A stretch of DNA of 14,631 bases from Promethearchaeota archaeon (GCA_013375475.1 JABXKD010000043.1:1-14631); one strand, 5' to 3'; numbered from the stretch's first letter, positions 935 to 14,631 are shown. The notes: a model not told the origin generated them from the letters alone. Program-made: numbers and translations.

Positions 935-1783
935 TTGAAATTGAAAACTCTTACTTTTAAAAAAAATTCCTGCTCTCTTATAGAAACACTTAAGCATAAC
1001 CATTATAAAACGGATTATGATTTTCAAGAACTATATCAATCACTTGATGAACAAGAAAGCATTGATGATAATTCGCTCCATTTATCTATAATTCTACCAG
1101 TATATAATGAAGCAAGGACGATTTTGAAGCTAATTCAATCCCTTCCAATACATAAATCAATAGAAATCATTATAGTGGATGACCATTCGACGGACAATAG
1201 TCTGGAAGAGATTAACAAGGCAAATTATAAAGGAAAAATTCATATTATCGAGCATAAAGTTAATTCAGGCTATGGTGCAGCATTGTTGACCGGAATTCGT
1301 TATAGTAAGGGGAAAATTTTCATAACAATGGACTCAGATGGCCAACATCAAGCAAGTGATTTACATAATTTAGTCAAACCTATTTTTGATGGGCAAGCAG
1401 ATATTACAATAGGATCTAGATACAAGGGAACGTATAACTATAAGTTACCATTGTCAACAAGGATTGGAGAGGCAGTATTAGAAGTGGTAATACGAATTTT
1501 CTTTGGTCAAAAAGTTAAAAATAATCAGGGAGGTTTTCGAGCGTTTCATAGAAAGACAATTAAGATGTTTGAAGATACTCGATTTCATGGATATGCCTTT
1601 ACCACTGAGTTAATTTTATCGGCAGTATTACGTAATCACAGAATTAAGGAATGTCCGATTGCTTTATTAGGTCGAGAGCATGGCGCTTCCTATATTATAT
1701 TAAATAAATTATTTATTTCACTGTTGTTATGCGTTTGGTTATATATTCTTAAAAATACTAAACGCTTACTTTCAAGAAGATAA
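935..1783 (+). CDS. GT2 glycosyltransferase, DPM1-like; paralog of the upstream gene (start may be TTG941)
   Basis: LSIILPVYNE, VDDHSTD, GYGAALLTG, TMDSDGQH, IGSRY, NNQGGFRAF. A hand alignment with ORF1 is gap-free with 124/200 identical residues (about 62%). About 45 aa precede the GT2 core. Confidence 0.9.
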   Translation: MKLKTLTFKKNSCSLIETLKHNHYKTDYDFQELYQSLDEQESIDDNSLHLSIILPVYNEARTILKLIQSLPIHKSIEIIIVDDHSTDNSLEEINKANYKGKIHIIEHKVNSGYGAALLTGIRYSKGKIFITMDSDGQHQASDLHNLVKPIFDGQADITIGSRYKGTYNYKLPLSTRIGEAVLEVVIRIFFGQKVKNNQGGFRAFHRKTIKMFEDTRFHGYAFTTELILSAVLRNHRIKECPIALLGREHGASYIILNKLFISLLLCVWLYILKNTKRLLSRR

Positions 1784-1803
1784 TTATCTTATCATATTAA
1801 AAT

Positions 1804-4326
1804 ATGAATATCAAAAGGATTGGACAAATAGTATTACCTTTATTATTAATTATTGAAACACCTATTAATAAGATTTTATCTAAGAGAAATCTCAAAGTGG
1901 GATTTCGGGAAAGGCAGAATATTTTAATTGTAGGCGGGAGCTTCTTTAATAAAGGAGCTCAAGCAATGAGTTTTACCGCAGTAGATCAGATAAAAAGAAG
2001 ATTTCCAAAGAAGAGCATATATCTCTTATTAGATTCCGATTATAATGATGTTGATGATAATAATTTTGCGTTTAGAACATTACCGTGGACATACGAGTTA
2101 AGATTTAAACTACTAAACCCTCTTAATAGCCATTTATTTAAGTTTTATTCAAAATATAGAAAACATGAAAACTCAATAACGAAAATCCTTAAAAATACTT
2201 TAATGATTATTGATGTAAGTGGATATAGTTTTTCTTCGGAGATGGGACAAACATGGGTTGCTTCAATTTTAGATATTATGATAGCAGAGAGGTATCAAAT
2301 TGATTATTATATCTTTCCTCAATCAATTGGCCCGTTTAATTTCTCTTTATTAAATAGATTATTTTTCTTTACGCTAACGAGATCATTTTTAACATATCCT
2401 CAAGAAATATTTGTTAGAGAGGATGATGGATTGAAGTTTATGGCGCAAATCTCTAACAAACATCTTTCAAAATCTTACGATATTGTTCTTAAAAACAAGG
2501 AATACGACTTAAGAAATATTTACAAGAGATTACCAGATTTAAGAAAAGTTCATATTAATTCAAACTCCGTTGGAATAATTCCTAACAATAAAATCTCCAT
2601 GAGGATTAAAGAAGATGAATTTTTAAATCTCTACTCAAAGGTAATTAACAGTTTGATTAAAAGTGGTAAGTACATTTATATTTTAGCACATTCGTCAGAA
2701 GATTTCAAAATCTGTGAGAAAATTAAACATACTGTTATAGATAACGATAAAGTTATTTTTTTGAAAGATAATTATAATGTTTTTGAATTGGAAAACATAA
2801 TAAAGCAGTTTGATTTTGTAATTGCTTCTCGTTACCATTCAATTGTAAATTCCTATAGGCTTGAAGTACCATCTTTCGTGATCGGATGGGCTCATAAATA
2901 TAAAGAGTTAATGGATGCCTTTAATCAGTTTGAATATTATTTTGATATAAGACAGAAAATAGATACAAGAGAGCTTGAAAATAAATTAGAAAAGATGACT
3001 CGTGATTTTGCTTTGGAAAAAAACATAATTTCTGCTAATTTAACAAATATTTTAAATAATTCACAATCTTGTTTCGACTCTTTACACGATATAAAGGATA
3101 AGAATGTAATAAAGACAAAGCAATTAGATTTTTGTTTATCATGTGAAGCATGTGTAGCGGTGTGCCCCGTAAATGCAATTAAAATGAAGTTAGAAAAGGG
3201 TCAATTTTTACCAGAAGTAAATTTAGGATTATGCACTAATTGTGGAATTTGTTTAAGCGTTTGTCCAGGAGTAGATTTAAACCCCTTAAAAATAAGCAAA
3301 AACGAGACCTATTTAGATTATGAAAAACAAAAAATAAGAGCATGCTATACAACTTACAGCAAAAATGAACTAATTAGGAAAAATTCTACAAGTGGGGGCG
3401 TAGTTACAAATCTTATTTATGAATTGTTAAAATCTAAAGAATATGACGGAGCATTTGTTCTAAAATTCAAGGATTTCGATGGAGAACCAGTTAGACTAGA
3501 TTTAATTAATAATCCTGATGATTTAATAAGTTCAGCAGGTTCGAAATATTTACCTGCGTCAATTTTTTATATTTTAAAAAAAATTAAAAAGTATCCTAGT
3601 AAAAAGTATATAATTGTAGGAACTCCTTGCCAATTTCATAGCATAAAAAAATTTCTTAGTCATAAGAATTTAGATATTAAAGAAAATCTTTTGTTTTTAG
3701 GTTTATTTTGCGATGGAACGCTAAATTTTAATTTTATATACTATATTAAGCAGCTTTATGAAACTAAAAACAGCAAAATACAGGAATTTCAGTATCGATC
3801 TAAAGAAAAATATGGTTGGCCCGGGCATTCTAAAATAGAGTTTAACACTGGAAGAAAATCTATCTTAAAGAGAGATTTTAGAATATTCTGCAAGAGATAC
3901 TTTATATTAAATCGGTGTTTGTATTGTTACGATAAGTTGAATAATTTATCTGATATTTCTTTTGGAGACTGTTATATTGCAGGAAAAGCTAATAAAGACG
4001 GAAATTCGAATATAATTATAAGAACTAAGAGGGGTGAACAAACTTTTAATAAATACTCTCACTTATTTTATAGCGAAACAGAAGACTTCAAAAAGATCGC
4101 AAAGTCCCAAAATGTTCCCCTAAAGGCTAAAAAATTGGAATATAATAAATCTTTATATCAAAAAAAAAGAATAGGAATGAAAGATTTTCTTTTAATTAAT
4201 TCTAAAATGATACTTGCTAAATTTTTTCTCAGAAGAGGTCAAAAATACAGTTCTTTCATATCATTCCACTTTTATATAATAAAATTATACAAATATCTAA
4301 TTTCATACCTTAAGATAAGAAAATAA
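1804..4326 (+). CDS. Fusion: polysaccharide pyruvyl transferase (WcaK/CsaB-like) + 2x[4Fe-4S] ferredoxin + coenzyme F420 hydrogenase/dehydrogenase beta-subunit (FrhB/FdhB) family domain
   Basis: N-half motifs: NKGAQAM, IIDVSGYSF, FPQSIGPF, IFVRE, IASRYHS, IGWAHKY (pyruvyl transferase pattern). Two CxxCxxCxxxCP motifs at 3133-3168 (CLSCEACVAVCP) and 3232-3267 (CTNCGICLSVCP). C-half motifs: STSGGVVT, GSKY, VGTPCQ, GLFCDG, GWPG, RCLYC, DISFGD (FrhB_FdhB N/C pattern). Single uninterrupted ORF. Confidence 0.88.
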   Translation: MNIKRIGQIVLPLLLIIETPINKILSKRNLKVGFRERQNILIVGGSFFNKGAQAMSFTAVDQIKRRFPKKSIYLLLDSDYNDVDDNNFAFRTLPWTYELRFKLLNPLNSHLFKFYSKYRKHENSITKILKNTLMIIDVSGYSFSSEMGQTWVASILDIMIAERYQIDYYIFPQSIGPFNFSLLNRLFFFTLTRSFLTYPQEIFVREDDGLKFMAQISNKHLSKSYDIVLKNKEYDLRNIYKRLPDLRKVHINSNSVGIIPNNKISMRIKEDEFLNLYSKVINSLIKSGKYIYILAHSSEDFKICEKIKHTVIDNDKVIFLKDNYNVFELENIIKQFDFVIASRYHSIVNSYRLEVPSFVIGWAHKYKELMDAFNQFEYYFDIRQKIDTRELENKLEKMTRDFALEKNIISANLTNILNNSQSCFDSLHDIKDKNVIKTKQLDFCLSCEACVAVCPVNAIKMKLEKGQFLPEVNLGLCTNCGICLSVCPGVDLNPLKISKNETYLDYEKQKIRACYTTYSKNELIRKNSTSGGVVTNLIYELLKSKEYDGAFVLKFKDFDGEPVRLDLINNPDDLISSAGSKYLPASIFYILKKIKKYPSKKYIIVGTPCQFHSIKKFLSHKNLDIKENLLFLGLFCDGTLNFNFIYYIKQLYETKNSKIQEFQYRSKEKYGWPGHSKIEFNTGRKSILKRDFRIFCKRYFILNRCLYCYDKLNNLSDISFGDCYIAGKANKDGNSNIIIRTKRGEQTFNKYSHLFYSETEDFKKIAKSQNVPLKAKKLEYNKSLYQKKRIGMKDFLLINSKMILAKFFLRRGQKYSSFISFHFYIIKLYKYLISYLKIRK

Positions 4327-4339
4327 ATTACAATACTGC

Positions 4340-5974
4340 TTATCCATGGATTCTTTTTAGTATATTTAATATTTTTAAGAGAACCTTGTTTAAGAGTTTC
4401 TGTTTATGAAAAATGCTTCTTAAATTTTCGATATCTTGAATAGTAATAATTTTTAATATTAAATTCAAAAAAGCAAAAATACAGAAGAAAGTAAGTATTG
4501 ATAATGGATAGAAATTCTTGAGGATACTTAGATGTAGAAAATCGAATAGTAGTATTTCTAATTCTTCCAGGAATAACATTTGTAATATTAAAACCAGAAT
4601 TAAGGAAAGAGCAAAAGTGATATAAAGTACAATTAATGGTTTCAGTTCTATATGTAACTTACCCCATTTGATAGTAAAGAATAGATAAAAAAAACCAAAA
4701 ACTGAATTACTGATTATAATACCGATTAATGCAGGTATTATCCCAAACCAAACTAACAAGAATAAAAATAATGGTAATCTAAGCACTAAACCTAAAAACC
4801 GTATATAGAGGATCATTTTCGGTTTATGTTCTGCTAGCATTAAGGCATCGAATGGTGCCGCAAAACTTAGAAATAAGTAAGAGAAGAGGTAAATTTTGAG
4901 TATAATGGAAAATTGAAGATAATCTTCTCCTAAGATATATAAAAAGAAATCCGTAGCAAGAAACAAAATTCCTGTTAATAATAAAAATGTGAATAACGAA
5001 TATTTCAAAATTAGGTTATATATAGCCTTTATTTTTTCTTTCTCATCTTTAGCCATGAACCTAGAGAAGGAAACTGTTAGAGGGGACGAAAAGGAATTTA
5101 GAGCGTTTGTCGAGACTGCTAAATAAGTTTTCGCTAAATAGAAGCCTGTTGTAAATAATGGTTCAAGGGCACCTATCGACTGTATTTGAATTTCTCCCCA
5201 AATATCAGACAAGAACCTACCCCCTCTCACAGGAGCGCCATATTTTAGAATTTTCATTAACTCATCGTTATGAAAAATTGGTGTTTTATTATCGATTTTT
5301 ATTTTCAGATATTTCTTAAGGACAAATAGCAGGTTTATAAAAAAAGCTATTGCGTATGACACCACATTAAAAATCGCAATATTTTCCAATCCCAGATTGC
5401 CAGTAATGAAGAAAAAAGAAATCAGAAGTCCGATATAAAGTAGATTTTTTAATACTAAAAGTAGAAAGATGAACTTAAAGTTATTTAAACCTTCATTGAA
5501 TGAATTTAAATATAGTTCCAAACCATTGATTATGATTAACGGAGATAATAAGAATAATAAATTGATATCCTCGGGATTCAGATTAAGGAGAAATATGTTT
5601 TGGAAAAAGTTAAAAATTAATAAACTGATTATGAAAATTGGAATTAAGAAGAGCATCTTTGTAATGAACGCTGATTTTAATAAAGATTTTAAATTTTGAG
5701 TTTGATTCAATGACTGGTACCGGGGAACATAATAACGTAATGTCTGTTGTAAACCCGGGGGAAAAAATGTTAAAATCAGAGTTATAATAAGAATATAAGA
5801 ATTAGCGATAATCAAAATTATCCAAGATTCAGGGCTGATTAGACGCGCTATTAGAAATGTAATTATTAAATTGAAAAAGAAGTTCCCATAAATACTCAAA
5901 AATGAGTAGAATGAACTCCTTACAAGAGTTCTATGATCTGAAAAGGTTTCTTGATTAAAATTATCTTCTTTCAA
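4340..5974 (-). CDS. Oligosaccharide flippase, Wzx/MOP superfamily (polysaccharide biosynthesis protein)
   Basis: 544 aa with roughly 12-14 hydrophobic segments. The N-terminal LVRSSFYSFL...IARLISPESW matches the Wzx 'ARxLgPexyG' pattern. Also LKYGAP and a ...ILGEDY segment. Glycan-locus context; TTG start. Confidence 0.85.
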   Translation of the reverse strand: MKEDNFNQETFSDHRTLVRSSFYSFLSIYGNFFFNLIITFLIARLISPESWIILIIANSYILIITLILTFFPPGLQQTLRYYVPRYQSLNQTQNLKSLLKSAFITKMLFLIPIFIISLLIFNFFQNIFLLNLNPEDINLLFLLSPLIIINGLELYLNSFNEGLNNFKFIFLLLVLKNLLYIGLLISFFFITGNLGLENIAIFNVVSYAIAFFINLLFVLKKYLKIKIDNKTPIFHNDELMKILKYGAPVRGGRFLSDIWGEIQIQSIGALEPLFTTGFYLAKTYLAVSTNALNSFSSPLTVSFSRFMAKDEKEKIKAIYNLILKYSLFTFLLLTGILFLATDFFLYILGEDYLQFSIILKIYLFSYLFLSFAAPFDALMLAEHKPKMILYIRFLGLVLRLPLFLFLLVWFGIIPALIGIIISNSVFGFFYLFFTIKWGKLHIELKPLIVLYITFALSLILVLILQMLFLEELEILLFDFLHLSILKNFYPLSILTFFCIFAFLNLILKIITIQDIENLRSIFHKQKLLNKVLLKILNILKRIHG

Positions 5975-6118
5975 CTTAATAAATCGGTAAATTTGATTAA
6001 GTGTATAAAAGTAATAAGAAAAAAAAACCTTAGGTTAAAATTAGAAAGAAAAACAGATCCAAAATAAATCACATAAAGGGAATCACTTTAAAATAAATTT
6101 TAAACTCAAAAATCATTA

Positions 6119-6126
6119 TTTAAAAA
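6119..6126 (+). promoter_or_regulatory. Possible TATA box for a leaderless transcript of the 6148 operon
   Basis: TTTAAAAA lies 22-29 nt upstream of ATG6148, in the divergent intergenic region 5975-6147. No SD precedes the ATG. Confidence 0.3.
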
Positions 6127-6147
6127 CAAAATAAAATTAAATTTGAA

Positions 6148-6978
6148 ATGATAAACCCTTTAGTTTCCATAATTATTCCGACATATAATCGTCCCACATA
6201 TCTTCAAAGAGCAATTGGTTCGACTTTAAATCAGACATATAAGAACCTTGAAATAATCATCATTGATGACTTTTCAACTCAAGATATTTCAGCCGTGGTA
6301 AATGAATTTCAAGATAATCGAATTAAATATTTTAAAAACTCAACCAACCGAGGGTCTGTATTTAGCAGAAATAGGGGATTATCAATTTGCTCAGGAGATT
6401 ATGTAAATTTTTTAGATGATGATGATGAGATATTACCACAGAAAGTTGAATTTCAATTAGCTAAATTTAAAGTGTCTAATGTTGAAAATTTAGGGGTAGT
6501 AAGTTGCGATATGGAATATAGACGAAAAGATATAAATATGCTAAAGAAGAATCACCTGAAAGGGAACATATATAAAAAGTTACTCAGGCAATATTGTATC
6601 TATGGAATACATAGCATGCTAATCAAGAAAGAATTTACACCTAAATTCGATATAAATCTTAAATCAAGCCAAGAATACGATTTATCAATAAGACTTGCTA
6701 GGAGATGTAATTTTGATTATGTTCCCAAACGACTTGCTATCACTCACACTTCCGAGAATCAAATAAGTTTTAATTATAAGAAGAAAATTCATGGTACAAA
6801 GTATTTATTTAAAAAATATCGAAGCGAGTTTTTAAGATTTGGAGCGAAATTTTATGTTTATAATTGGTTCAGATTTCGCTATTTATTACTAAGATATTTT
6901 GTTTTGCTAAAATTAAGTGTGAGACATGTAAATGAATTGATATATACTATACACAATAAATTAGTAAAAAATCTTTGA
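6148..6978 (+). CDS. GT2 family glycosyltransferase (GT-A fold)
   Basis: PLVSIIIPTYNR, LNQTYKNLEIIIIDDFS, SRNRGL, VNFLDDDD, QEYDLSIRL. Confidence 0.92.
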   Translation: MINPLVSIIIPTYNRPTYLQRAIGSTLNQTYKNLEIIIIDDFSTQDISAVVNEFQDNRIKYFKNSTNRGSVFSRNRGLSICSGDYVNFLDDDDEILPQKVEFQLAKFKVSNVENLGVVSCDMEYRRKDINMLKKNHLKGNIYKKLLRQYCIYGIHSMLIKKEFTPKFDINLKSSQEYDLSIRLARRCNFDYVPKRLAITHTSENQISFNYKKKIHGTKYLFKKYRSEFLRFGAKFYVYNWFRFRYLLLRYFVLLKLSVRHVNELIYTIHNKLVKNL

Positions 6979-7811
6979 AAATTAAGAAAATGCGAGAATT
7001 ACCCTTTGTTACGGTTTTTACACCAAATTATAATAAATCTAAATATTTACCGGAAACGATAGAAAGTGTTTTACAGCAAACATATAAGAATTTTGAGTAT
7101 ATCATCGTTGATGACTGTTCTACGGATGATAGTTGGGATATTATTCGCACTTATGCTTCTAAGGATGAAAGAATCAAACCTTATAGAAATGAGGAAAATT
7201 TAAAAATTGTAAAAACTCGCAATAAAGGATTTCAATTTAGTTCCAAAGAAGCAAAATATTATGCTATTTTAGATAGTGACGATGTTTCTGCTCCTGAAAG
7301 ATTAGAAAAACAGGTCACTTTTTTAGAGGAAAATCCCTTATATGGGTTAATAGGGAGTGATATTATTGTAATAAATGAAGAATCGAAGGAGATTGGGTAT
7401 AGAAAATATGCCTCGTCCGATTTAGAAATACGAAAAGTGATCACACGATTAAATCCGATTGCCCAATCAAGTGTCCTTATAAGAAAGCAAGCAATTCAAG
7501 AAGTAGGATATTACGATGAACAATGGAATGTCTGTCAAGATTATGATTATTGGTTGAGAATAGGGATTGATTGGAAATTAAAGAATTTCGATAATCCTCT
7601 AATAAAATACCGCTTAAGCGGAACCCAGGTTAAAATCACTAACTTAAAAGAGACAATTCAAAATACATATTTAATCCAAAAAAAAGCTATAAAAGAATAT
7701 AACTATGGTGATTCCATCTATAATAAGTTCTATAGGCTGATTTTAAGACTTTCTTTTTCATACCCAAAATTTGCCTACTTTATTTACCGAAGAAAGATAA
7801 GAAAACAATAA
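6975..7811 (+). CDS. GT2 family glycosyltransferase (GT-A fold)
   Basis: VTVFTPNYN, ESVLQQTYKNFEYIIVDDCSTD, AILDSDD, RLEKQ, QDYDYWLR. The TTG start overlaps the previous stop (TTGA, 4 bp); ATG6990 is an alternative start. Confidence 0.92.
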   Translation: MKIKKMRELPFVTVFTPNYNKSKYLPETIESVLQQTYKNFEYIIVDDCSTDDSWDIIRTYASKDERIKPYRNEENLKIVKTRNKGFQFSSKEAKYYAILDSDDVSAPERLEKQVTFLEENPLYGLIGSDIIVINEESKEIGYRKYASSDLEIRKVITRLNPIAQSSVLIRKQAIQEVGYYDEQWNVCQDYDYWLRIGIDWKLKNFDNPLIKYRLSGTQVKITNLKETIQNTYLIQKKAIKEYNYGDSIYNKFYRLILRLSFSYPKFAYFIYRRKIRKQ

Positions 7812-7827
7812 AGAGGATATTTTAGGA

Positions 7828-8796
7828 ATGATAAAAAATAAGAATATATTAATTACTGGTGGGGCGGGATTTATAGGATCACATCTAGTCGAATTGTTAC
7901 TCAAGGAGGGTAATTTTATAGTAGTTATTGACAATTTCAACGATTATTATGAAGGGAAAGACGCAAATATCCAGAGCGCAATAAAAAATTGTGAAGCAAA
8001 AGATTATCACATAATCAGGGGAGATATCACCAAGGAAGATATTTTTAATAAAATAACGGTGGATGTTGACATCATCTTTAATTTAGCGGCTCAAGCGGGT
8101 GTGAGATATTCAATTGAAAATGCTGCTGAAGTTGCACAAAATAACATTACAAGTGTCGTGAATGTTCTCGATTATGCAGTTGAGAAAGATATTGGAAAGA
8201 TTGTTCATGCTTCGTCTTCCTCTGTCTATGGTAATCCTCTATATACTCCTCTAGACGAGGATCATCCTAAAAATCCTATTTCTCCTTATGCAGTTTCTAA
8301 ATTATGTGGCGAACTTTATTGTGATTATTATTTTAAAGAGTACAATTTACTTGTTTCTTCTCTAAGGTTTTATACTGTTTATGGTCCAAGAGGACGCCCA
8401 GATATGGCTATTAGAAAATTCTTTAACTTAATGTTCCAAGACAAAGAAATTACGATTTATGGCGATGGAACACAATTAAGGGATTATACTTATGTTTCTG
8501 ATATTATAAATGGATTATATTTAGCAGCTGAAAAAACAGAATCCGCAGGGCAAGTCTTTAACTTAGGATATTCAAACCCCATTAGTGTAAATGATCTTAT
8601 TGAGAAGATGTATTCAATTTCTGGTAAATCTAAAAAAGTTAAGTATATAGAAAGTCAACAGGGGGATGTAGATATAACATATTCAAATACAGAAAAAGCA
8701 AAAAAAATTTTAAATTATCATCCTCAAATAAATATTGATGAGGGATTAAAGAAAACCTACGAATGGCAGAAAAAAATTCAATTGACTAAATTATAA
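7828..8796 (+). CDS. NAD-dependent epimerase/dehydratase (extended SDR), UDP-glucuronate 4-epimerase-like
   Basis: TGGAGFIGS, NLAAQAGVRYS, ASSSSVYG, catalytic YAVSK, LRFYTVYGPRGRPDMA, RDYTYV. AGVRYS and RPDMA are typical of the Uge/CapI-like group. GAGGA at 7813-7817 is a possible SD. Confidence 0.88.
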   Translation: MIKNKNILITGGAGFIGSHLVELLLKEGNFIVVIDNFNDYYEGKDANIQSAIKNCEAKDYHIIRGDITKEDIFNKITVDVDIIFNLAAQAGVRYSIENAAEVAQNNITSVVNVLDYAVEKDIGKIVHASSSSVYGNPLYTPLDEDHPKNPISPYAVSKLCGELYCDYYFKEYNLLVSSLRFYTVYGPRGRPDMAIRKFFNLMFQDKEITIYGDGTQLRDYTYVSDIINGLYLAAEKTESAGQVFNLGYSNPISVNDLIEKMYSISGKSKKVKYIESQQGDVDITYSNTEKAKKILNYHPQINIDEGLKKTYEWQKKIQLTKL

Positions 8797-8850
8797 TAAA
8801 TATGTGAAATTACATAATTAAAAAATATAGTTAAGAACTATTGACCTAGC

Positions 8851-9819
8851 ATGAATTTTAACAAAAAGAGGATTTTAATCACTGGAGCTGCAGGCTTTAT
8901 TGGGAGTAACCTTACTGATAGTTTATTAGAAGAAGGTGCAGAGGTTATCGGTATTGACAATCTCTTTAGTGGAAGTCTAGAAAATCTAGAGCGTGCATTT
9001 AAAAATAAAAAATTTGAATTCCATAAAGGAGATATCCGTGATCTAAACTTTCTATTAGATATCTTTAAAGATATTGATATAGTGTATCATCAAGCAGCGT
9101 TTACAAGTGTACCTCAATCTGTTAAAATGCCAGAGAATTGTAATGATGTCAATGTAAATGGTGTTTTAAACGTACTGAACGCCGCTCGCCGAATGAATGT
9201 AGATAAGGTAATTTATGCTTCTAGTTCAGCAGTATATGGAGATACACCTACCTTGCCTAAACGAGAGGATATGCGAAGGATACCAATATCTCCATACGGC
9301 GTTGCTAAATTAGCTTGTGAAGCCTACATGCAGGCGTATCATCATGTGTATGGGTTAAAAACAATTTCTTTAAGATATTTTAATGTTTTTGGACCAAGGC
9401 AAAGAGATTCACCTTATAGCGGAGTTATTGCTATCTGGTTAGGCAATATTATTAGAAATGAAGATCTAATAATATTTGGGGATGGTAAAATTTCGAGGGA
9501 TTTTACTTACATTAAGGATGTAATTCAAGCGAATCTTTTAGCTGCGGAACATAATGCAGCAGGAGAAATAATTAACATAGGCGCGGGATCACCAATAACT
9601 CTAACAGATTTGGCAACTTTAATGTTAAAAATAGTGAAAAAAGAAAATCTAAAAATTATTTATTCAGATCCCAGACCTGGTGATATATTACACAGCTATG
9701 CTGATATCTCGAAAGCATTGGATTTAATACATTTCAAACCAGAATATGATCAGGAACGAGGTTTATCTGATTATTTCAAATGGTACAGCAATAGATATAA
9801 TATAGATTTAAAGAAATAA
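8851..9819 (+). CDS. NAD-dependent epimerase (extended SDR), WbpP/TviC-like UDP-GlcNAc(A)/UDP-Glc 4-epimerase
   Basis: TGAAGFIGSN, HQAAFTSVPQS, ASSSAVYGDTPTLPKRE, catalytic YGVAK, LRYFNVFGPRQ...YSGVI, RDFTY, RPGDILHSYADI. Confidence 0.88.
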   Translation: MNFNKKRILITGAAGFIGSNLTDSLLEEGAEVIGIDNLFSGSLENLERAFKNKKFEFHKGDIRDLNFLLDIFKDIDIVYHQAAFTSVPQSVKMPENCNDVNVNGVLNVLNAARRMNVDKVIYASSSAVYGDTPTLPKREDMRRIPISPYGVAKLACEAYMQAYHHVYGLKTISLRYFNVFGPRQRDSPYSGVIAIWLGNIIRNEDLIIFGDGKISRDFTYIKDVIQANLLAAEHNAAGEIINIGAGSPITLTDLATLMLKIVKKENLKIIYSDPRPGDILHSYADISKALDLIHFKPEYDQERGLSDYFKWYSNRYNIDLKK

Positions 9820-9835
9820 AAGAATTATTGAAGAT

Positions 9836-12091
9836 ATGAGCGCTATTAAAATTAGTCTAAATAAAATCCTATTATATTTTAGATTAAGAATTAATCTCTT
9901 TTTCATAGTATTATCATTTTTAATGTTTTCATCAGTATTTCTTCAAATTAGTGGTATTTTGGTAGATGTATTTAAGGATTTGAATTTAGTTAGCGTAATT
10001 TTTATTTTATTGTTATTACCCTCGTATCCTATTTATTTTTTCATTTTTAAATTCGAAAATCTAAATGCTGTAGAGAGATTAAGCCTGACTATTGTTACTA
10101 ATTTATCAATCTATATTCTCGAAGGATTTATTGGCCATTCTTTAAAAATCCCATTAACGCCATTATTTTTTCTCTCAATAACTTTTTTTTTATTTATTAT
10201 TCTAATTGGTTCAACGGTTATTATTCAAATTAAAAATAAATCTCTCTCATCTTTTATAATATTACAAACCGATGTAGATAAAGAGAGGTTTTACAACGAT
10301 TTCTCGATTTTAAAATACATTAAGGATCGTTTATCCTTAAACGGGATTTTATTGATTATTTTTATTTTACTGTTTATCTTATCAGATTTCGCAAGGGGGG
10401 GTTATTTTATTGGGTTTGATCCGTGGCTACATATTAGTATAATTAGGTCGATTACCGAAACCTACCAATTACCTGCAGGAGAATACTTTGGAGCAATGGG
10501 TTTACACATTTTCAGCGTAGTTTTTCAATACTTTTCAGGAATAAGTGCAATAAATATACCTAGGTTTTCACTTTTTTACACATTTCCAGTTTCGAGTTTA
10601 ATTGTCTATTGTCTTCTAATGCGTGTATTTAAAAACAAAAATTTAGCAATTTTTGGAGTATACATATTAACCTTTACTTCATTAGGGTTTTCTTATTTGA
10701 TGTATCAATATTGGCCCTCGGGATTAACTTTTATCCAAGGGCTTATGATTTTTCTTCTACTTTTTATAAGATTACAAGCTTTTATAAAAGAGAGGCCTCC
10801 AAGTCGCAAAGAGATTTTTACTGGTATCTTTAAAACATATATACCGGTTATATTAATCCTAATTAGTGCTTTAATTACTCACTCATTGATGGCACTTATT
10901 ATTTTAATTTCTTTTGTATGGATTTATTTAATCTACTTCTGCATTAATGTCAGAAGAGGGTTTGATTTTTTCCTCTTATTAGGTTTGATGGGTATTTTTT
11001 TACTATTTTATAGCTTAAATATCAGTACGGGGCATCTTAGAGTGTTTGATAAGTTTTTTTCCTTACCAATTCAATACATTGTTTCAGGTTTAATTGCTGG
11101 TGCTTCAGTTATATTACTATCTATTCTCTATATCAGAAAGGACACCAAATTTACAACAGGAAGGTATAAGCTAATAATTTTCGGTAAAAAGAAAAAGTTT
11201 TATAAAACAGTTGAAGATCGGTTTTTTATACCAATTTTAATAGCTCTTGTAATTATTTTTACTATTACCTTTTTTATTGCAAATTTCTTTGTGTTTAATT
11301 TAAATTCTTATTTTATTTTTGTAGGTTTTGAATTAGCGCTATATATAATTATTGCTCTATGGGGATTTGGAGTGTATAGATTTAAGCCTAGGGGTAAAGT
11401 CTTATGGTTATGGGCAATTATATTGGTCTTTTTGATTTTTGCGGGTTTAATTTTTGATGTTTTCACCAACACTTTCCATTTTTATACACGGATTTTTTAT
11501 ATTAGCTCGGTTGTTATAGCTATAGGGTTTATTTCTTACTTTCAAAAATTAATGAAGTTAGGAGGAAGAAATGAAACAAAATCAATGATTTTGATAAGCT
11601 TAATAGTTTTCTTCTCTTTATTTGCTTCGTTTATTGATATAAGCGTTTCTAGGGAAATTTACACATTAAAGAAGCGAGAAGTGAGTACTATACAATGGTA
11701 TTCAAATTACACTAATGAGACTAATACGATAGTTGGTATGAATGGCTGGGAGCATGTTTTTGTATATTACAATTTCCCCTTTGATAATCTAAGTTATGAT
11801 TTATCGTTCAAGCAGATTCATAATTTTATTCCTGCTGACAATGATCTAATGCACCCTGAGAATCATGTTTTGAGTAATGGTACAAATTTCTTAACAGAAA
11901 TGAAGAAAGACACAGAAATGGAAATTTATCTTCTTTTGTCTGATAATTTCTTATTAACATCAGGTTCGAGCTTTTTTGGTCAGCTGACTCCAGAAGAAAT
12001 AGAACATTATTATAATCTAAACTATTTAAATAGAATATTTTCTGCTAAAAGTGAAAACGGCGAAGAAATGCCCATTTATTGGGTTATATAA
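9836..12091 (+). CDS. Polytopic membrane protein, putative GT-C-fold glycosyltransferase with DUF1616-like N-terminus
   Basis: 751 aa with many TM segments. The N-terminal LP-x-Y...ERLSLTI pattern resembles DUF1616. GFDPWLH (10412-10432) sits in a loop after a TM helix, as the acidic motif does in GT-C/STT3-like enzymes. The soluble C-terminal domain starts at about EVSTIQWY. Membrane protein is secure; the GT-C call is inference. Confidence 0.55.
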   Translation: MSAIKISLNKILLYFRLRINLFFIVLSFLMFSSVFLQISGILVDVFKDLNLVSVIFILLLLPSYPIYFFIFKFENLNAVERLSLTIVTNLSIYILEGFIGHSLKIPLTPLFFLSITFFLFIILIGSTVIIQIKNKSLSSFIILQTDVDKERFYNDFSILKYIKDRLSLNGILLIIFILLFILSDFARGGYFIGFDPWLHISIIRSITETYQLPAGEYFGAMGLHIFSVVFQYFSGISAINIPRFSLFYTFPVSSLIVYCLLMRVFKNKNLAIFGVYILTFTSLGFSYLMYQYWPSGLTFIQGLMIFLLLFIRLQAFIKERPPSRKEIFTGIFKTYIPVILILISALITHSLMALIILISFVWIYLIYFCINVRRGFDFFLLLGLMGIFLLFYSLNISTGHLRVFDKFFSLPIQYIVSGLIAGASVILLSILYIRKDTKFTTGRYKLIIFGKKKKFYKTVEDRFFIPILIALVIIFTITFFIANFFVFNLNSYFIFVGFELALYIIIALWGFGVYRFKPRGKVLWLWAIILVFLIFAGLIFDVFTNTFHFYTRIFYISSVVIAIGFISYFQKLMKLGGRNETKSMILISLIVFFSLFASFIDISVSREIYTLKKREVSTIQWYSNYTNETNTIVGMNGWEHVFVYYNFPFDNLSYDLSFKQIHNFIPADNDLMHPENHVLSNGTNFLTEMKKDTEMEIYLLLSDNFLLTSGSSFFGQLTPEEIEHYYNLNYLNRIFSAKSENGEEMPIYWVI

Positions 12092-12123: not shown

Positions 12124-12888
12124 TCAATCAAAAATTTCATATTCTCCTAGAAATGCTGTATCTAGTTTATCATTTAAGATTTGAGTCTTGTTACCTTCAA
12201 TTTTAAAAAAACTGGGGAGATTACCAACTTGTCCTACTTTATCTTCTCGACAAATAAAAGCGCCCTTGACACCTTCAATGTTTTCCGCTACATCTAGAGC
12301 ATCTTTGATTGATTTTTCAATATCCGCTCCTTTAACTTCATTTGCTACTCTCGTTGCGGCCCCATCTGCCAATGTTGCGGTTGTTGCGAATATAGTTACT
12401 GCATCAGCTTGACCCAAACTTATAGCATGCCCAATTGTGGCAGAACTTGTGCCAATTCCAATCGGACAATCTTTTTCTTGAATTAGAAATCCTAAATTTA
12501 AATTTAATTGATTATATCCAGCAAATAGTGCAATTTTTAAAGTTTCTTTGGTCTCTATTGCGATTTCACCTCCATTTTCGACTAACGCAACTTCAGGAGA
12601 ATTCATTGATTGTAGCATTAAATCAGCGAATGCACCTGCTACTGCTGCCATTGGACCGACATCACATACAACTGATGCTTCACTCATTAGATTGATAATC
12701 TCAAACTCTGTTTTAATTTTAATAGGTAAAAAGGAGGTGAGGAATTTGTCATTTTTTTTTATAAATTGTTCTAAAATTAAACGATTACTAGCCAAACTTT
12801 CTTTAGCTTTTAAAATGGCACTTTTCGACTCTGAAATTAAAGTTACATCCGATTCTTGTTCTAAAAAATGATATTTATATTTTTTCAT
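12124..12888 (-). CDS. UPF0280 family protein (ApbE-like superfamily)
   Basis: VGPMAAVAGA, ENGGEIA, GIGTSSATIGHAISLGQADAVTI, LADGAAT-x-x-AN are characteristic of archaeal UPF0280 proteins. Confidence 0.9.
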   Translation of the reverse strand: MKKYKYHFLEQESDVTLISESKSAILKAKESLASNRLILEQFIKKNDKFLTSFLPIKIKTEFEIINLMSEASVVCDVGPMAAVAGAFADLMLQSMNSPEVALVENGGEIAIETKETLKIALFAGYNQLNLNLGFLIQEKDCPIGIGTSSATIGHAISLGQADAVTIFATTATLADGAATRVANEVKGADIEKSIKDALDVAENIEGVKGAFICREDKVGQVGNLPSFFKIEGNKTQILNDKLDTAFLGEYEIFD

Positions 12889-13510: not shown

Positions 13511-14631
13511 ATATTAAGACAGGTTTACATATATAAGGGCGGCAAATTACTATATTATCGTCATTTCGGAAAAGCCCTTAAGAAAGTGGCTTTCAATGCT
13601 TTAGTAAAAGATTTGATGCGAGATGCTTTTGCTAAAGGAGGAAAAAAAGTAGAATATCACGATTATTATAAATATAGAATATCCTATATTACAGAGACAG
13701 AACATGAATTGATGTTTTTATTTGTAACTGGATTAACAGATAATTTTGAAAACATAAAAAAGGAACTAATCAAATGTCAAAAAGAATTTTTAAATTTCTT
13801 TGAAGATATCCTCCAACATAAGTTCGATTCTAAGACTTTTGAGATTTTTGATCCCACCATTGATTCAATTCATAAAAATTTAAGGCCAAAAATTTCATTA
13901 GTTGGTTTTTCGGGTGTTGGAAAAACCACGATAACTCGCTTAATTAAAGCTGAAGAAATTCCGATGCAACATATTCCAACAATAACAGGAGATATAGCTA
14001 CGATTAAAATAGGAAAATTACATTTTCATTTATGGGATTTTGCAGGACAAGAACAGTTTAGCTATTTATGGAATAATTTTATCAAGGGAAGTGATGCGGT
14101 TTTATTAATCACAGATTCAACTTTGGTAAATGTCGAAAAAAGTAAATTTTTCTTGGAACTTATAAAAGAACAAGCTGCTCAAGCCCACACATCAGTTATT
14201 GGTAACAAGCAAGATCTAGACGATGCTATGAAGCCTGAACAAATCGAGAAAATCTTAGGATTAAAAACATATTCAATGATTGCAAAAGATTCAGGAAACC
14301 GAGATAAAATGATAACTATTATTGCTGACATACTAGAAATGAGTGCAGAAGTTTCTCCATTATTGCAACCCCTATTAGAAAGGGATAATTATACTGAAAA
14401 AGCTGTAGAAGCTTTAGAGGCAGCAAAATTTGAGGAAGCTGCGATGTACTTTGAGAAAATAAGTGACTTATGCATCGAATTAGGAGATGATTCATTGGGT
14501 AAAGAATTCTATGAAAAATCTCTAAAAATAAAAACTATGATCCAACAATCGAGTACCGCTCAGAAAGCTCCTATTCAAGAACCAAAAAGTGTAGAACCTC
14601 AATCCAAGGCAATAGAACCACCTAAACCAAA
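13511..14631 (+). CDS. Longin-like domain + Ras-superfamily small GTPase (Arf/Rab-like) + helical hairpin + Pro/Lys/Glu-rich tail; 3' truncated; absent from the supplied ORF track
   Basis: Hand translation shows an open frame from 13505 to the window end: (I/M)LRQVYIYKGGKLLYYRHFGKALKKVAFNALVKDLMRDAF...YRISYITETEHELMFLFVTGLTDNFENIKKELIKCQKEFLNFF... G1 GFSGVGKTT (13904-13930), G2 IPTIT (13973-13987), G3 WDFAGQ (14033-14050), G4 NKQD (14204-14215). The start is uncertain (ATA13511/13508; first GTG 13586, first ATG 13616). Confidence 0.9.
   Translation, partial: MLRQVYIYKGGKLLYYRHFGKALKKVAFNALVKDLMRDAFAKGGKKVEYHDYYKYRISYITETEHELMFLFVTGLTDNFENIKKELIKCQKEFLNFFEDILQHKFDSKTFEIFDPTIDSIHKNLRPKISLVGFSGVGKTTITRLIKAEEIPMQHIPTITGDIATIKIGKLHFHLWDFAGQEQFSYLWNNFIKGSDAVLLITDSTLVNVEKSKFFLELIKEQAAQAHTSVIGNKQDLDDAMKPEQIEKILGLKTYSMIAKDSGNRDKMITIIADILEMSAEVSPLLQPLLERDNYTEKAVEALEAAKFEEAAMYFEKISDLCIELGDDSLGKEFYEKSLKIKTMIQQSSTAQKAPIQEPKSVEPQSKAIEPPKP

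Follow-up and report, generated by a model that had tools for sequence, protein, structure and literature searches.

We analysed a stretch of DNA of 14,631 nucleotides (nt) from a Promethearchaeota archaeon (GCA_013375475.1 JABXKD010000043.1:1-14631), in the following called the window, which is the whole contig C226 (14.6 kb) of a metagenomic genome assembly of 3.92 Mb in 288 contigs (G000) with an estimated contamination of 6.41%. Between glycosyltransferase genes and a flippase gene it carries a fusion gene on the plus strand (1804..4326, stop codon included), which starts with ATG, has no internal stop and encodes a single protein of 840 amino acids (aa), in which a polysaccharide pyruvyl-transferase-family domain is joined to a ferredoxin- and FrhB/FdhB-type reductase. 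From the domains of this protein and by analogy to a gene pair of Escherichia coli we favour, with some reserve, the reading that it is a single-chain lactyl-ether synthase acting on a sugar of a surface glycan.

The fusion gene and its surroundings

The fusion gene and its parts are the following, with the aa positions of the protein and the evidence used:

1804..4326, plus strand: whole fusion gene, P0001 (translation of the open reading frame (ORF), Pfam, AlphaFold2 model)
1810..1884, plus strand: N-terminal moderately hydrophobic helix, aa 3-27 (highest 19-residue Kyte-Doolittle mean 1.46; AlphaFold2 model)
1915..3063, plus strand: polysaccharide pyruvyl-transferase-family domain, about aa 38-420, GT-B-like (Pfam PF04230, Foldseek, invariant columns)
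3064..3123, plus strand: short linker, about aa 421-440 (alignment A2, gene coordinates of the related split pair L009, dip of the predicted local distance difference test (pLDDT) at aa 429-431)
3124..3273, plus strand: 2x[4Fe-4S] ferredoxin-type domain with two CxxCxxCxxxCP motifs (motif, Pfam)
3343..4089, plus strand: FrhB/FdhB-type flavin and [4Fe-4S] domain (Pfam, phmmer, Foldseek, invariant columns)
4114..4320, plus strand: C-terminal helical tail, aa 771-839, basic and partly hydrophobic (alignment, AlphaFold2 model)

The first-pass annotation of the window had described one 840-aa ORF made of a pyruvyl transferase, two CxxCxxCxxxCP motifs from C444 onwards and a full FrhB/FdhB domain, and profile searches bear this out, as every family lies above its Pfam cut-off. 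PS_pyruv_trans (PF04230) matches aa 49-363 with 66.5 bits (cut-off 25.3) and is covered from profile position 1 to 279 of 280, Fer4_7 matches aa 444-488 with 37 bits (cut-off 27), FrhB_FdhB_N (PF04422) aa 514-591 with 53.8 bits (cut-off 22) and FrhB_FdhB_C (PF04432) aa 600-762 with 95.5 bits (cut-off 23.3). By Pfam it belongs to PF04230 as well as to the FrhB/FdhB families. Its transferase domain retains N49 K50 G51, D137, P172 Q173, R205, D226, D300, R343 H345, W362 and K365 Y366, and the motifs of the subfamily with a reductase partner (N-K-G, P-Q..G, R-x-H and W..K-Y) are all present. The only cysteines of this half are C304 and C423, and it contains no redox cofactor motif. The ferredoxin-type motifs are formed by C444/447/450/454-P455 and C477/480/483/487-P488. 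In the FrhB/FdhB-type domain Cys609, Cys636, Cys705 and Cys708 occupy the columns of the invariant cluster cysteines of FrhB-type proteins (alignment A1), the TSGG and SKYxPAS motifs are retained and S530-G531-G532, S580, Y582 and S586 fall into invariant columns of the same alignment; judged from the family, the four cysteines are putative [4Fe-4S] ligands and the two motifs putative parts of the flavin site. Altogether the fusion keeps 16 of the 16 columns that are invariant in 18 stand-alone transferases (alignment A4) and 36 of the 36 that are invariant in 29 stand-alone reductases (A1). The linker takes the place of a stop codon, a spacer of 32 nt and a start codon in related split pairs (L009 coordinates, alignment A2). 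According to the alignment, the helix of aa 3-27 is common to the stand-alone transferases of the split archaeal loci L009 and L010 and the tail of aa 771-839 to their stand-alone reductases; the helix, in which the Kyte-Doolittle analysis predicts no transmembrane segment, possibly makes a peripheral membrane contact.

The AlphaFold2 model, calculated with a block alignment, has a mean pLDDT of 90.5 with a dip at aa 429-431 and a predicted template modelling score (pTM) of 0.63. Using Foldseek, the C-terminal half was found to resemble F420-reducing modules, Fsr, FrhB, FdhB and HCAR (E 3e-18 to 3e-13), and in a phmmer search it reached E 1e-20 to 8rja_E and E 4e-16 to Fsr. The N-terminal half matched WaaA, OGT, UGTs and UDP-GlcNAc 2-epimerase (E 5e-8 to 2e-6). 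No solved pyruvyl transferase was among the Foldseek matches listed for this half, a search of the PDB sequences with the single protein gave no match and a profile of the 18 transferases gave only chance-level matches to capsid proteins. Equivalog cut-offs for CsaB and WcaK were missed (scores of 53.7 against 213.1 for TIGR03609, 35.9 against 399 for NF007452 and 28 against 727.1 for TIGR04006), as were the curated cut-offs for FrhB and FpoF (61.2 against 331.5 for TIGR03289, 79.8 against 269 for NF006807 and 72.3 against 475 for NF040616). With the ketal pyruvyl transferases WcaK and CsaB, beside which WcfO and Pvg1 are further examples from PF04230, the window domain shares the family, the conserved motifs and phosphoenolpyruvate (PEP) as presumed donor, but it lies far below their equivalog cut-offs and is covalently joined to a reductase. 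With FrhB, FpoF, the N-terminal half of Fsr, 8rja_E, 8riu_B and HCAR the C-terminal half shares the arrangement of ferredoxin and FrhB modules with flavin and [4Fe-4S] clusters, and BciB is another reductase of this type. It differs in that the window offers it neither a hydrogenase or dehydrogenase partner nor a siroheme one, in that it stays below every curated FrhB or FpoF cut-off, and in that its proposed substrate is an enolpyruvyl sugar and not F420 or a chlorophyll. The 16 Pfam hits include no MurA or MurB family, and by sequence and fold the fusion protein is no homologue of either.

The remaining genes of the window are listed here:

2-805 (open 5' end) and 935-1783, plus strand: two family 2 glycosyltransferase (GT2) genes directly upstream of the fusion gene, on the same strand (Pfam)
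4340..5974, minus strand: Wzx-like flippase (Polysacc_synt/MatE), convergent with the fusion gene (Pfam)
6148-6978 and 6975-7811, plus strand: two further GT2 genes (Pfam)
7828-8796 and 8851-9819, plus strand: two NAD-dependent sugar epimerase/dehydratase genes (Pfam, NCBIfam)
9836-12091, plus strand: polytopic membrane protein of 751 aa whose C-terminal part is soluble (Pfam and NCBIfam without a match up to E 5)
12124-12888, minus strand: 254-aa conserved archaeal protein with a function-less label (NCBIfam 'hypothetical protein' PRK04334, 221.6 bits against a cut-off of 262; no Pfam family)
13586-14629 (open 3' end), plus strand: Arf/Roc/Ras-family small GTPase with an N-terminal extension of roughly 95 aa (Pfam)

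A glycan locus without hydrogenase subunits nearby had been proposed before, in agreement with our Pfam scan, in which none of the 12 window ORFs encodes a hydrogenase subunit (FrhA/FrhG or Fpo-complex partners included) and the neighbours of the fusion gene are the GT2, flippase and sugar epimerase/dehydratase genes. The 751-aa membrane protein is grouped in the protein atlas with archaeal 'hypothetical' clusters (commonest phylum Promethearchaeota) and lies near clusters of DUF6541, DUF1616 and DUF2206; within the locus it may serve as glycan polymerase or as a transferase of the GT-C type. The small GTPase and four actin-family genes located elsewhere in the genome (C284, C218, C133 and C20; best 441.7 bits against the actin family) would represent the eukaryote-like signature genes of an Asgard archaeon, and the nearest relatives of the fusion gene come from metagenome-assembled genomes (MAGs) titled Promethearchaeota or 'uncultured archaeon'. 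The window sequence is present in marine-sediment and subsurface metagenomes; no RNA data set was found among the matches listed.

The host genome contains CofD and two copies of CofE, with a fragment of CofH at the end of a contig, and it can probably make F420. About ten other FrhB-like genes (ORFs of 364-602 aa) are present on C26, C282, C221 (three copies), C240, C288, C44, C144 and C284. They are only distantly related to the reductase of the fusion (best phmmer E 7e-26) and none of them is near a transferase, the fusion being the only PF04230 match of the genome, and they have no bearing on the fusion gene. The same type of paralogue sits in open frames of 910-938 aa in related species, so other FrhB fusions with unnamed partners exist in the genus.

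Pairing of the two modules and origin of the fused form

To see how regularly the two modules occur together we collected relatives of the fusion from several sources. All of the best 120 full-length matches (120/120) carry both families. BLAST of the two halves gave a reductase-first order in 115 of 121 proteins (query included), the transferase-first order being found there only in the window's own cluster, P0003, two fragments and P0006. The best 150 matches from a library of 1.84 billion cluster representatives were classified into 71 reductase-first fusions, 9 transferase-first fusions, 55 transferases alone and 15 reductases alone, where some of the single-domain rows are truncated proteins such as P0004, a cut representative of the window's cluster. 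Searching one-genome-per-species contigs with a profile of the stand-alone reductases resulted in 57 loci, which were sorted by hidden Markov models. Among these are 32 reductase-first fusions and one frameshifted fusion (L011), 16 loci in which the transferase is a gene of its own, upstream and on the same strand (directly next to the reductase in 14, with one intervening gene in 2), 4 with the transferase adjacent downstream and one degenerate copy (L064); two more are cut by the contig end right after the reductase, and only the most distant one (L065, 27% identity) has no transferase. Thus, the transferase is fused to or within one gene of the reductase in 54/57 loci, whereas the other partners, for example sugar dehydratases, vary between loci. 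The first-pass annotation had described the two families as frequent neighbours in bacterial polysaccharide loci and had taken their fusion as Rosetta-stone evidence for a common pathway. The frequent neighbourhood proved correct for the species genomes, and the one-pathway idea is strongly supported by this pairing, by fusions in both orders and by several separate fused branches. The pairing of transferase and reductase is near-obligate and fusion itself is not rare, the window carrying the less common order with the transferase first. Reductase-first fusions such as P0049 ('hypothetical protein MSMAC_1863 [Methanosarcina mazei C16]') consist of the same three modules, are 45-53% identical per half and about 835-850 aa long, but show the opposite domain order; JGI names them 'coenzyme F420-reducing hydrogenase beta subunit/polysaccharide pyruvyl transferase WcaK-like protein'.

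Some single cases deserve mention. In L011, from an archaeal MAG, the reductase and the start of the transferase lie in one frame and the remaining transferase in the next, and L064, also from an archaeal MAG, contains only fragments of both modules. For P0023 (1336 aa) the precomputed Pfam families are PS_pyruv_trans, FrhB_FdhB_N/C and Polysacc_synt (PF01943, PF13440). Here the two modules may be joined to a Wzx-type flippase as well, and such a triple fusion would connect them to lipid-linked glycans. A search of plasmid proteins gave five distant records, and both of the two examined, from Pseudobutyrivibrio xylanivorans and Desulfotalea psychrophila with a reductase 25% identical to the query, have pyruvyl-transferase genes in the same polysaccharide locus, adjacent to the reductase gene in the former and separated from it by about 3 kb and a flippase gene in the latter. 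The locus of P. xylanivorans (L066, plasmid pNP95) holds two separate modules of pyruvyl transferase and FrhB-like gene, with one transferase annotated as two coding sequences (CDS) and with a radical SAM gene and an acyltransferase upstream.

As the first-pass annotation had named the junction (about nt 3050-3130) as the place where an assembly artefact would have to be looked for, we compared it to Logan contigs. Contigs from three studies other than the likely source bridge it: X3 record 6 spans 2765-3285 with 0 differences, X4 record 13 spans 2823-4634 with 20 differences and X5 records 22 and 23 span 2934-3395, and no indels are listed between 1834 and 4326 in this comparison. Furthermore, the 81% identical P0003 (840 aa) heads a cluster to which JGI, ENA and Logan assemblies contribute 12 members, and 10 of these have 840 aa. 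A chimeric assembly, or else a gene that was fused recently and has no function, might be suspected behind the long ORF in view of the fragmented metagenomic assembly with its estimated contamination and of the frameshifted or degenerate copies of the modules in L011 and L064. As the junction is bridged in three other studies, an assembly artefact is ruled out, and with the recurrence of the 840-aa form in 12 assemblies, the retention of all 52 invariant positions and the confident AlphaFold2 model we regard this explanation as a whole as hardly credible.

In order to trace the origin of the transferase-first form, trees of both halves were calculated with IQ-TREE (quick search, support by the Shimodaira-Hasegawa-like approximate likelihood ratio test, SH-aLRT); as they are unrooted, fusion and fission are indistinguishable in them. 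In both trees the window and P0003 join the split transferase-reductase pair L009 (SH-aLRT 100 and 99), followed by the split pair L010 from Promethearchaeota and the fused P0006 (support 87-91 in the tree of the reductase half, 98 in that of the transferase half), and this group of five is placed among reductase-first fusions. Of the nine other transferase-first fusions eight were included in the tree, and all of them fall into another clade, which has 20 rows, is mostly bacterial (support 100) and in which they are interleaved with split transferase-reductase pairs; the starred branches force at least five changes of the transferase-first-fusion label. The genes of L009 are 32 nt apart, and in the alignment the window linker joins the C-terminus of the transferase straight to the N-terminus of the reductase. 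Since the window groups with split archaeal pairs of the same gene order, its fusion is separate from the common reductase-first form, and we read this as a read-through fusion of an adjacent transferase-reductase pair within an archaeal lineage. The gene is sporadic, as among 24 other species of the genus a true homologue was found only in G012. There it is a reductase-first fusion (G012:C81:91212-93707, L078) with an open frame of 866 aa and 47% and 38% identity to the two halves, and the genus therefore holds both orders. In 16 genomes from three other families of the order (completeness 63-93%) no homologue was detected with this query. In one contig of run X5, of depth 4.5, nt 1720 is followed by 37 other letters and then by nt 4361 (90% likeness), which hints at a related strain without the whole fusion gene and fits a variable cassette.

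The E. coli O124/O164 gene pair

A link between the gene pair and a glycan structure comes from E. coli. Here a cluster that NCBI labels O124/O164 was located through homologues of glf (six other such regions belong to other serogroups), and it contains wzx, an FrhB-like gene, a PS_pyruv_trans gene, glycosyltransferase genes, wzy, glf and gnd. NCBI names the pair 'Coenzyme F420 hydrogenase/dehydrogenase beta subunit C-terminal domain' and 'polysaccharide pyruvyl transferase family protein', and Pfam assigns PF04422 and PF04432 to the former and PS_pyruv_trans (136 bits) to the latter. According to the excerpts of PMC7685785, the O124 antigen carries a lactyl group on glucose (4-O-lactyl-glucose), pyruvate groups are given only for O112ac, O149 and O156 and hence not for O124, and O164 has glucose instead of glucolactilic acid due to a frameshift in wfeP. 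The cluster was present in 6 of 5426 E. coli genomes. In three of the six the transferase is intact, and in the other three its match is one base shorter and annotated as two CDS, with an identical protein accession for the reductase. From the one-base loss in the transferase gene together with the reviewed wfeP frameshift it follows that wfeP is the pyruvyl-transferase-family gene and is needed for the lactyl ether. Among the matches listed in a literature search for 'wfeP' there were only unrelated papers.

Like the window, the E. coli cluster has PS_pyruv_trans and FrhB_FdhB_N/C modules side by side next to wzx in a Wzx/Wzy-type cluster, and in the window they are likewise combined within a glycan-assembly locus. 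The four FrhB-type cluster cysteines can be aligned by eye between the two reductases. As far as the excerpted genetics go, the E. coli pair is tied to a lactyl ether and not to a ketal, as in our proposal. The two systems differ in that E. coli has two genes in the order reductase-transferase and the window one gene in the order transferase-reductase, and in that one host is a bacterium that makes no F420 and the other an Asgard archaeon. The ketal-forming wcaK gene of the colanic acid cluster (NCBI: pyruvyl transferase) has no reductase neighbour in the E. coli regions examined, and PF04432 gave no match in the E. coli and Bacillus subtilis control genomes, though PF04230 matched both. By analogy, the window gene would work most like the enterobacterial glucolactilic-acid pair and represent a fused and reordered archaeal relative of it.

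A small E. coli plasmid rich in insertion sequences (L083, pBDSF8-3_3, 1739-9661) carries two glycan-tailoring modules, one with a nitroreductase-family fragment adjoining a pyruvyl transferase plus a GT2 gene and one with a flippase and an FrhB-like gene adjoining a pyruvyl transferase. In this layout the transferase is therefore paired with two unrelated flavoreductase families, which suggests that unrelated flavoreductases can fill the same role beside it. Part of the transferase is also matched by two other small E. coli plasmids. In the excerpts of a survey of Klebsiella capsule loci (PMC4616057) a single 'coenzyme F420 hydrogenase' gene and two nitroreductase genes are counted. The excerpts on a Salinivibrio O-polysaccharide (PMC8466920) describe 4-O-lactyl-mannose and counterparts in which this mannose bears a 4,6-pyruvate ketal, as a shared O-4 enolpyruvyl intermediate would predict.

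Proposed reaction, alternatives and significance

Formation of a pyruvate ketal requires no electrons, and the reductase is a near-obligate partner of the transferase, which therefore points to a redox step on the transferase product. We propose that the fusion protein is a cytoplasmic, single-chain, two-step enzyme that would attach a 1-carboxyethyl (lactyl) ether to a sugar of a lipid-linked surface glycan, its gene being a variable cassette in a Wzx-type glycan locus of an Asgard archaeon. As judged from its family, the GT-B-fold domain would add a sugar hydroxyl to C2 of PEP with release of phosphate, giving an O-enolpyruvyl sugar. In ordinary family members the same intermediate would be closed with a second hydroxyl to the cyclic ketal, whereas here the C-terminal module may reduce its C=C bond before ring closure. 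Electrons would pass from the two ferredoxin-type [4Fe-4S] clusters to the FrhB-type [4Fe-4S] cluster and the flavin, and the flavin would hand a hydride to the enolpyruvyl group within what is the F420-binding pocket of true FrhB. Reduced ferredoxin is the probable donor, and the acceptor would be a lipid-linked oligosaccharide, as suggested by the Wzx-type locus. No F420 ligase family match was found in the E. coli control genome, and since E. coli nevertheless has the FrhB-like protein in the O124 cluster, the family need not depend on F420.

The second step would have a parallel in MurB, in which a reduced flavin reduces an enolpyruvyl group, and in FbiB's C-terminal domain. The proposed chemistry as a whole resembles that of MurA and MurB, namely formation of a PEP-derived enolpyruvyl ether followed by flavin-mediated reduction to a lactyl ether, but the folds are unrelated (GT-B-like and FrhB-type in the window against EPSP-synthase-like and FAD-binding PCMH type), electrons would flow through Fe-S clusters and not from NADPH, and the acceptor is probably a lipid-linked glycan in place of UDP-GlcNAc. 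The formation of an enolpyruvyl ether from PEP by MurA is described in the excerpts of PMC6801904, and those of PMC6450877 describe FbiB's C-terminal domain, which binds flavin mononucleotide (FMN), as reducing the PEP-derived dehydro-F420-0. FbiB thus also reduces a PEP-derived enolpyruvyl group to a lactyl group with the help of a flavin, but with a nitroreductase-like FMN fold and on a phosphodiester-linked cofactor precursor. The first-pass annotation had already proposed enolpyruvyl transfer followed by C=C reduction, and the O124/O164 correlation now supports this indirectly.

Two other functions have to be weighed against a lactyl-ether synthase. The protein could be an ordinary ketal pyruvyl transferase whose Fe-S/flavin module senses the redox state or reduces some other site of this glycan, for example a keto-sugar or another substituent. 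Its transferase half retains every invariant residue of the family including R-x-H, its best named models are CsaB and WcaK, though below their cut-offs, and ketal formation is the only activity described for the family in the excerpts of PMC6801904, where the words 'lactyl' and 'reductase' do not occur. Ketal formation leaves the electrons without a use, yet the reductase is fused or adjacent in 54 of the 57 loci and has been fused many times, the remaining partners vary between loci, and the O124 cluster holds the pair while PMC7685785 in its excerpts lists a lactyl ether and no pyruvate group; we therefore consider this function unlikely. Alternatively, the pair might make another product, such as a further reduced or rearranged three-carbon substituent, or work in the oxidative direction with electrons leaving the flavin via the Fe-S clusters as in Fsr. 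This would agree with the closest solved modules (8rja_E, 8riu_B and the N-terminal half of Fsr), which have the same ferredoxin-FrhB layout and shuttle electrons between F420 and other catalytic sites, and with a genome that probably makes F420. The transferase half, with its two cysteines and no redox cofactor motif, offers nothing to accept such electrons, a third catalytic domain is missing and the E. coli correlation speaks for a simple lactyl ether, which leaves little probability for this alternative as well.

Several observations weigh against the lactyl-ether synthase itself. The pTM of 0.63 leaves the mutual placement of the two halves in the model unsettled. The reductase of the O124 cluster is only a distant relative of that of the window (25% identity, E 3e-17) and shows no Fer4 match at E<=1e-6, and between the two transferases BLASTP found no match (best E 2.8). 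The window transferase has S-R-Y-H where the E. coli O124 protein has D-S-F-H, which places them in different subfamilies, and the E. coli rows sit on very long branches in both trees. The serogroups of the six E. coli strains are NCBI wzx/wzy labels and not serology. F420H2 is also a possible donor, because the host's own genome has CofD, two CofE and the CofH fragment. In the literature we found nothing beyond gene counts that ties FrhB-like proteins to pyruvyl transferases, and no paper with a lactyl-ether sugar in an archaeal glycan in its title was among the matches listed. The gene is ordinary in its occurrence, and the chemistry behind the fusion stands as a proposal.

Lactyl-ether sugars span O antigens, capsules and lipooligosaccharides. 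They are given for the E. coli O antigens O58, O69, O124, O146 and O150 in the excerpts of PMC7685785 and are also described for the lipooligosaccharide of Odoribacter splanchnicus and, in the excerpts of PMC8466920, for a Salinivibrio O-polysaccharide. The structure papers on O. splanchnicus and Salinivibrio contain no gene-cluster analysis for the lactyl group, and no literature on the enzymology of lactyl-ether sugar formation was found. Whether a single enolpyruvyl intermediate has two outcomes, a ketal when the transferase acts alone and a lactyl ether when an FrhB- or nitroreductase-type flavoreductase is present, is in our view evenly balanced; it would be a general bacterial and archaeal route distinct from MurA/MurB, by which Asgard archaea would make muramic-acid-like acidic surface sugars with a ferredoxin-driven single chain. 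If true, the FrhB family would gain an ene-reductase activity that is new to it, annotation could predict a lactyl ether or a pyruvate ketal by whether the reductase is present, and the label 'coenzyme F420 hydrogenase beta subunit' would be corrected for thousands of genes in glycan loci. With a self-contained single-chain enzyme and relatives in cultured Methanosarcina the question is directly testable, and a lactyl-ether synthase, if confirmed, would give a first clue to an acidic decoration of Asgard surface glycans.

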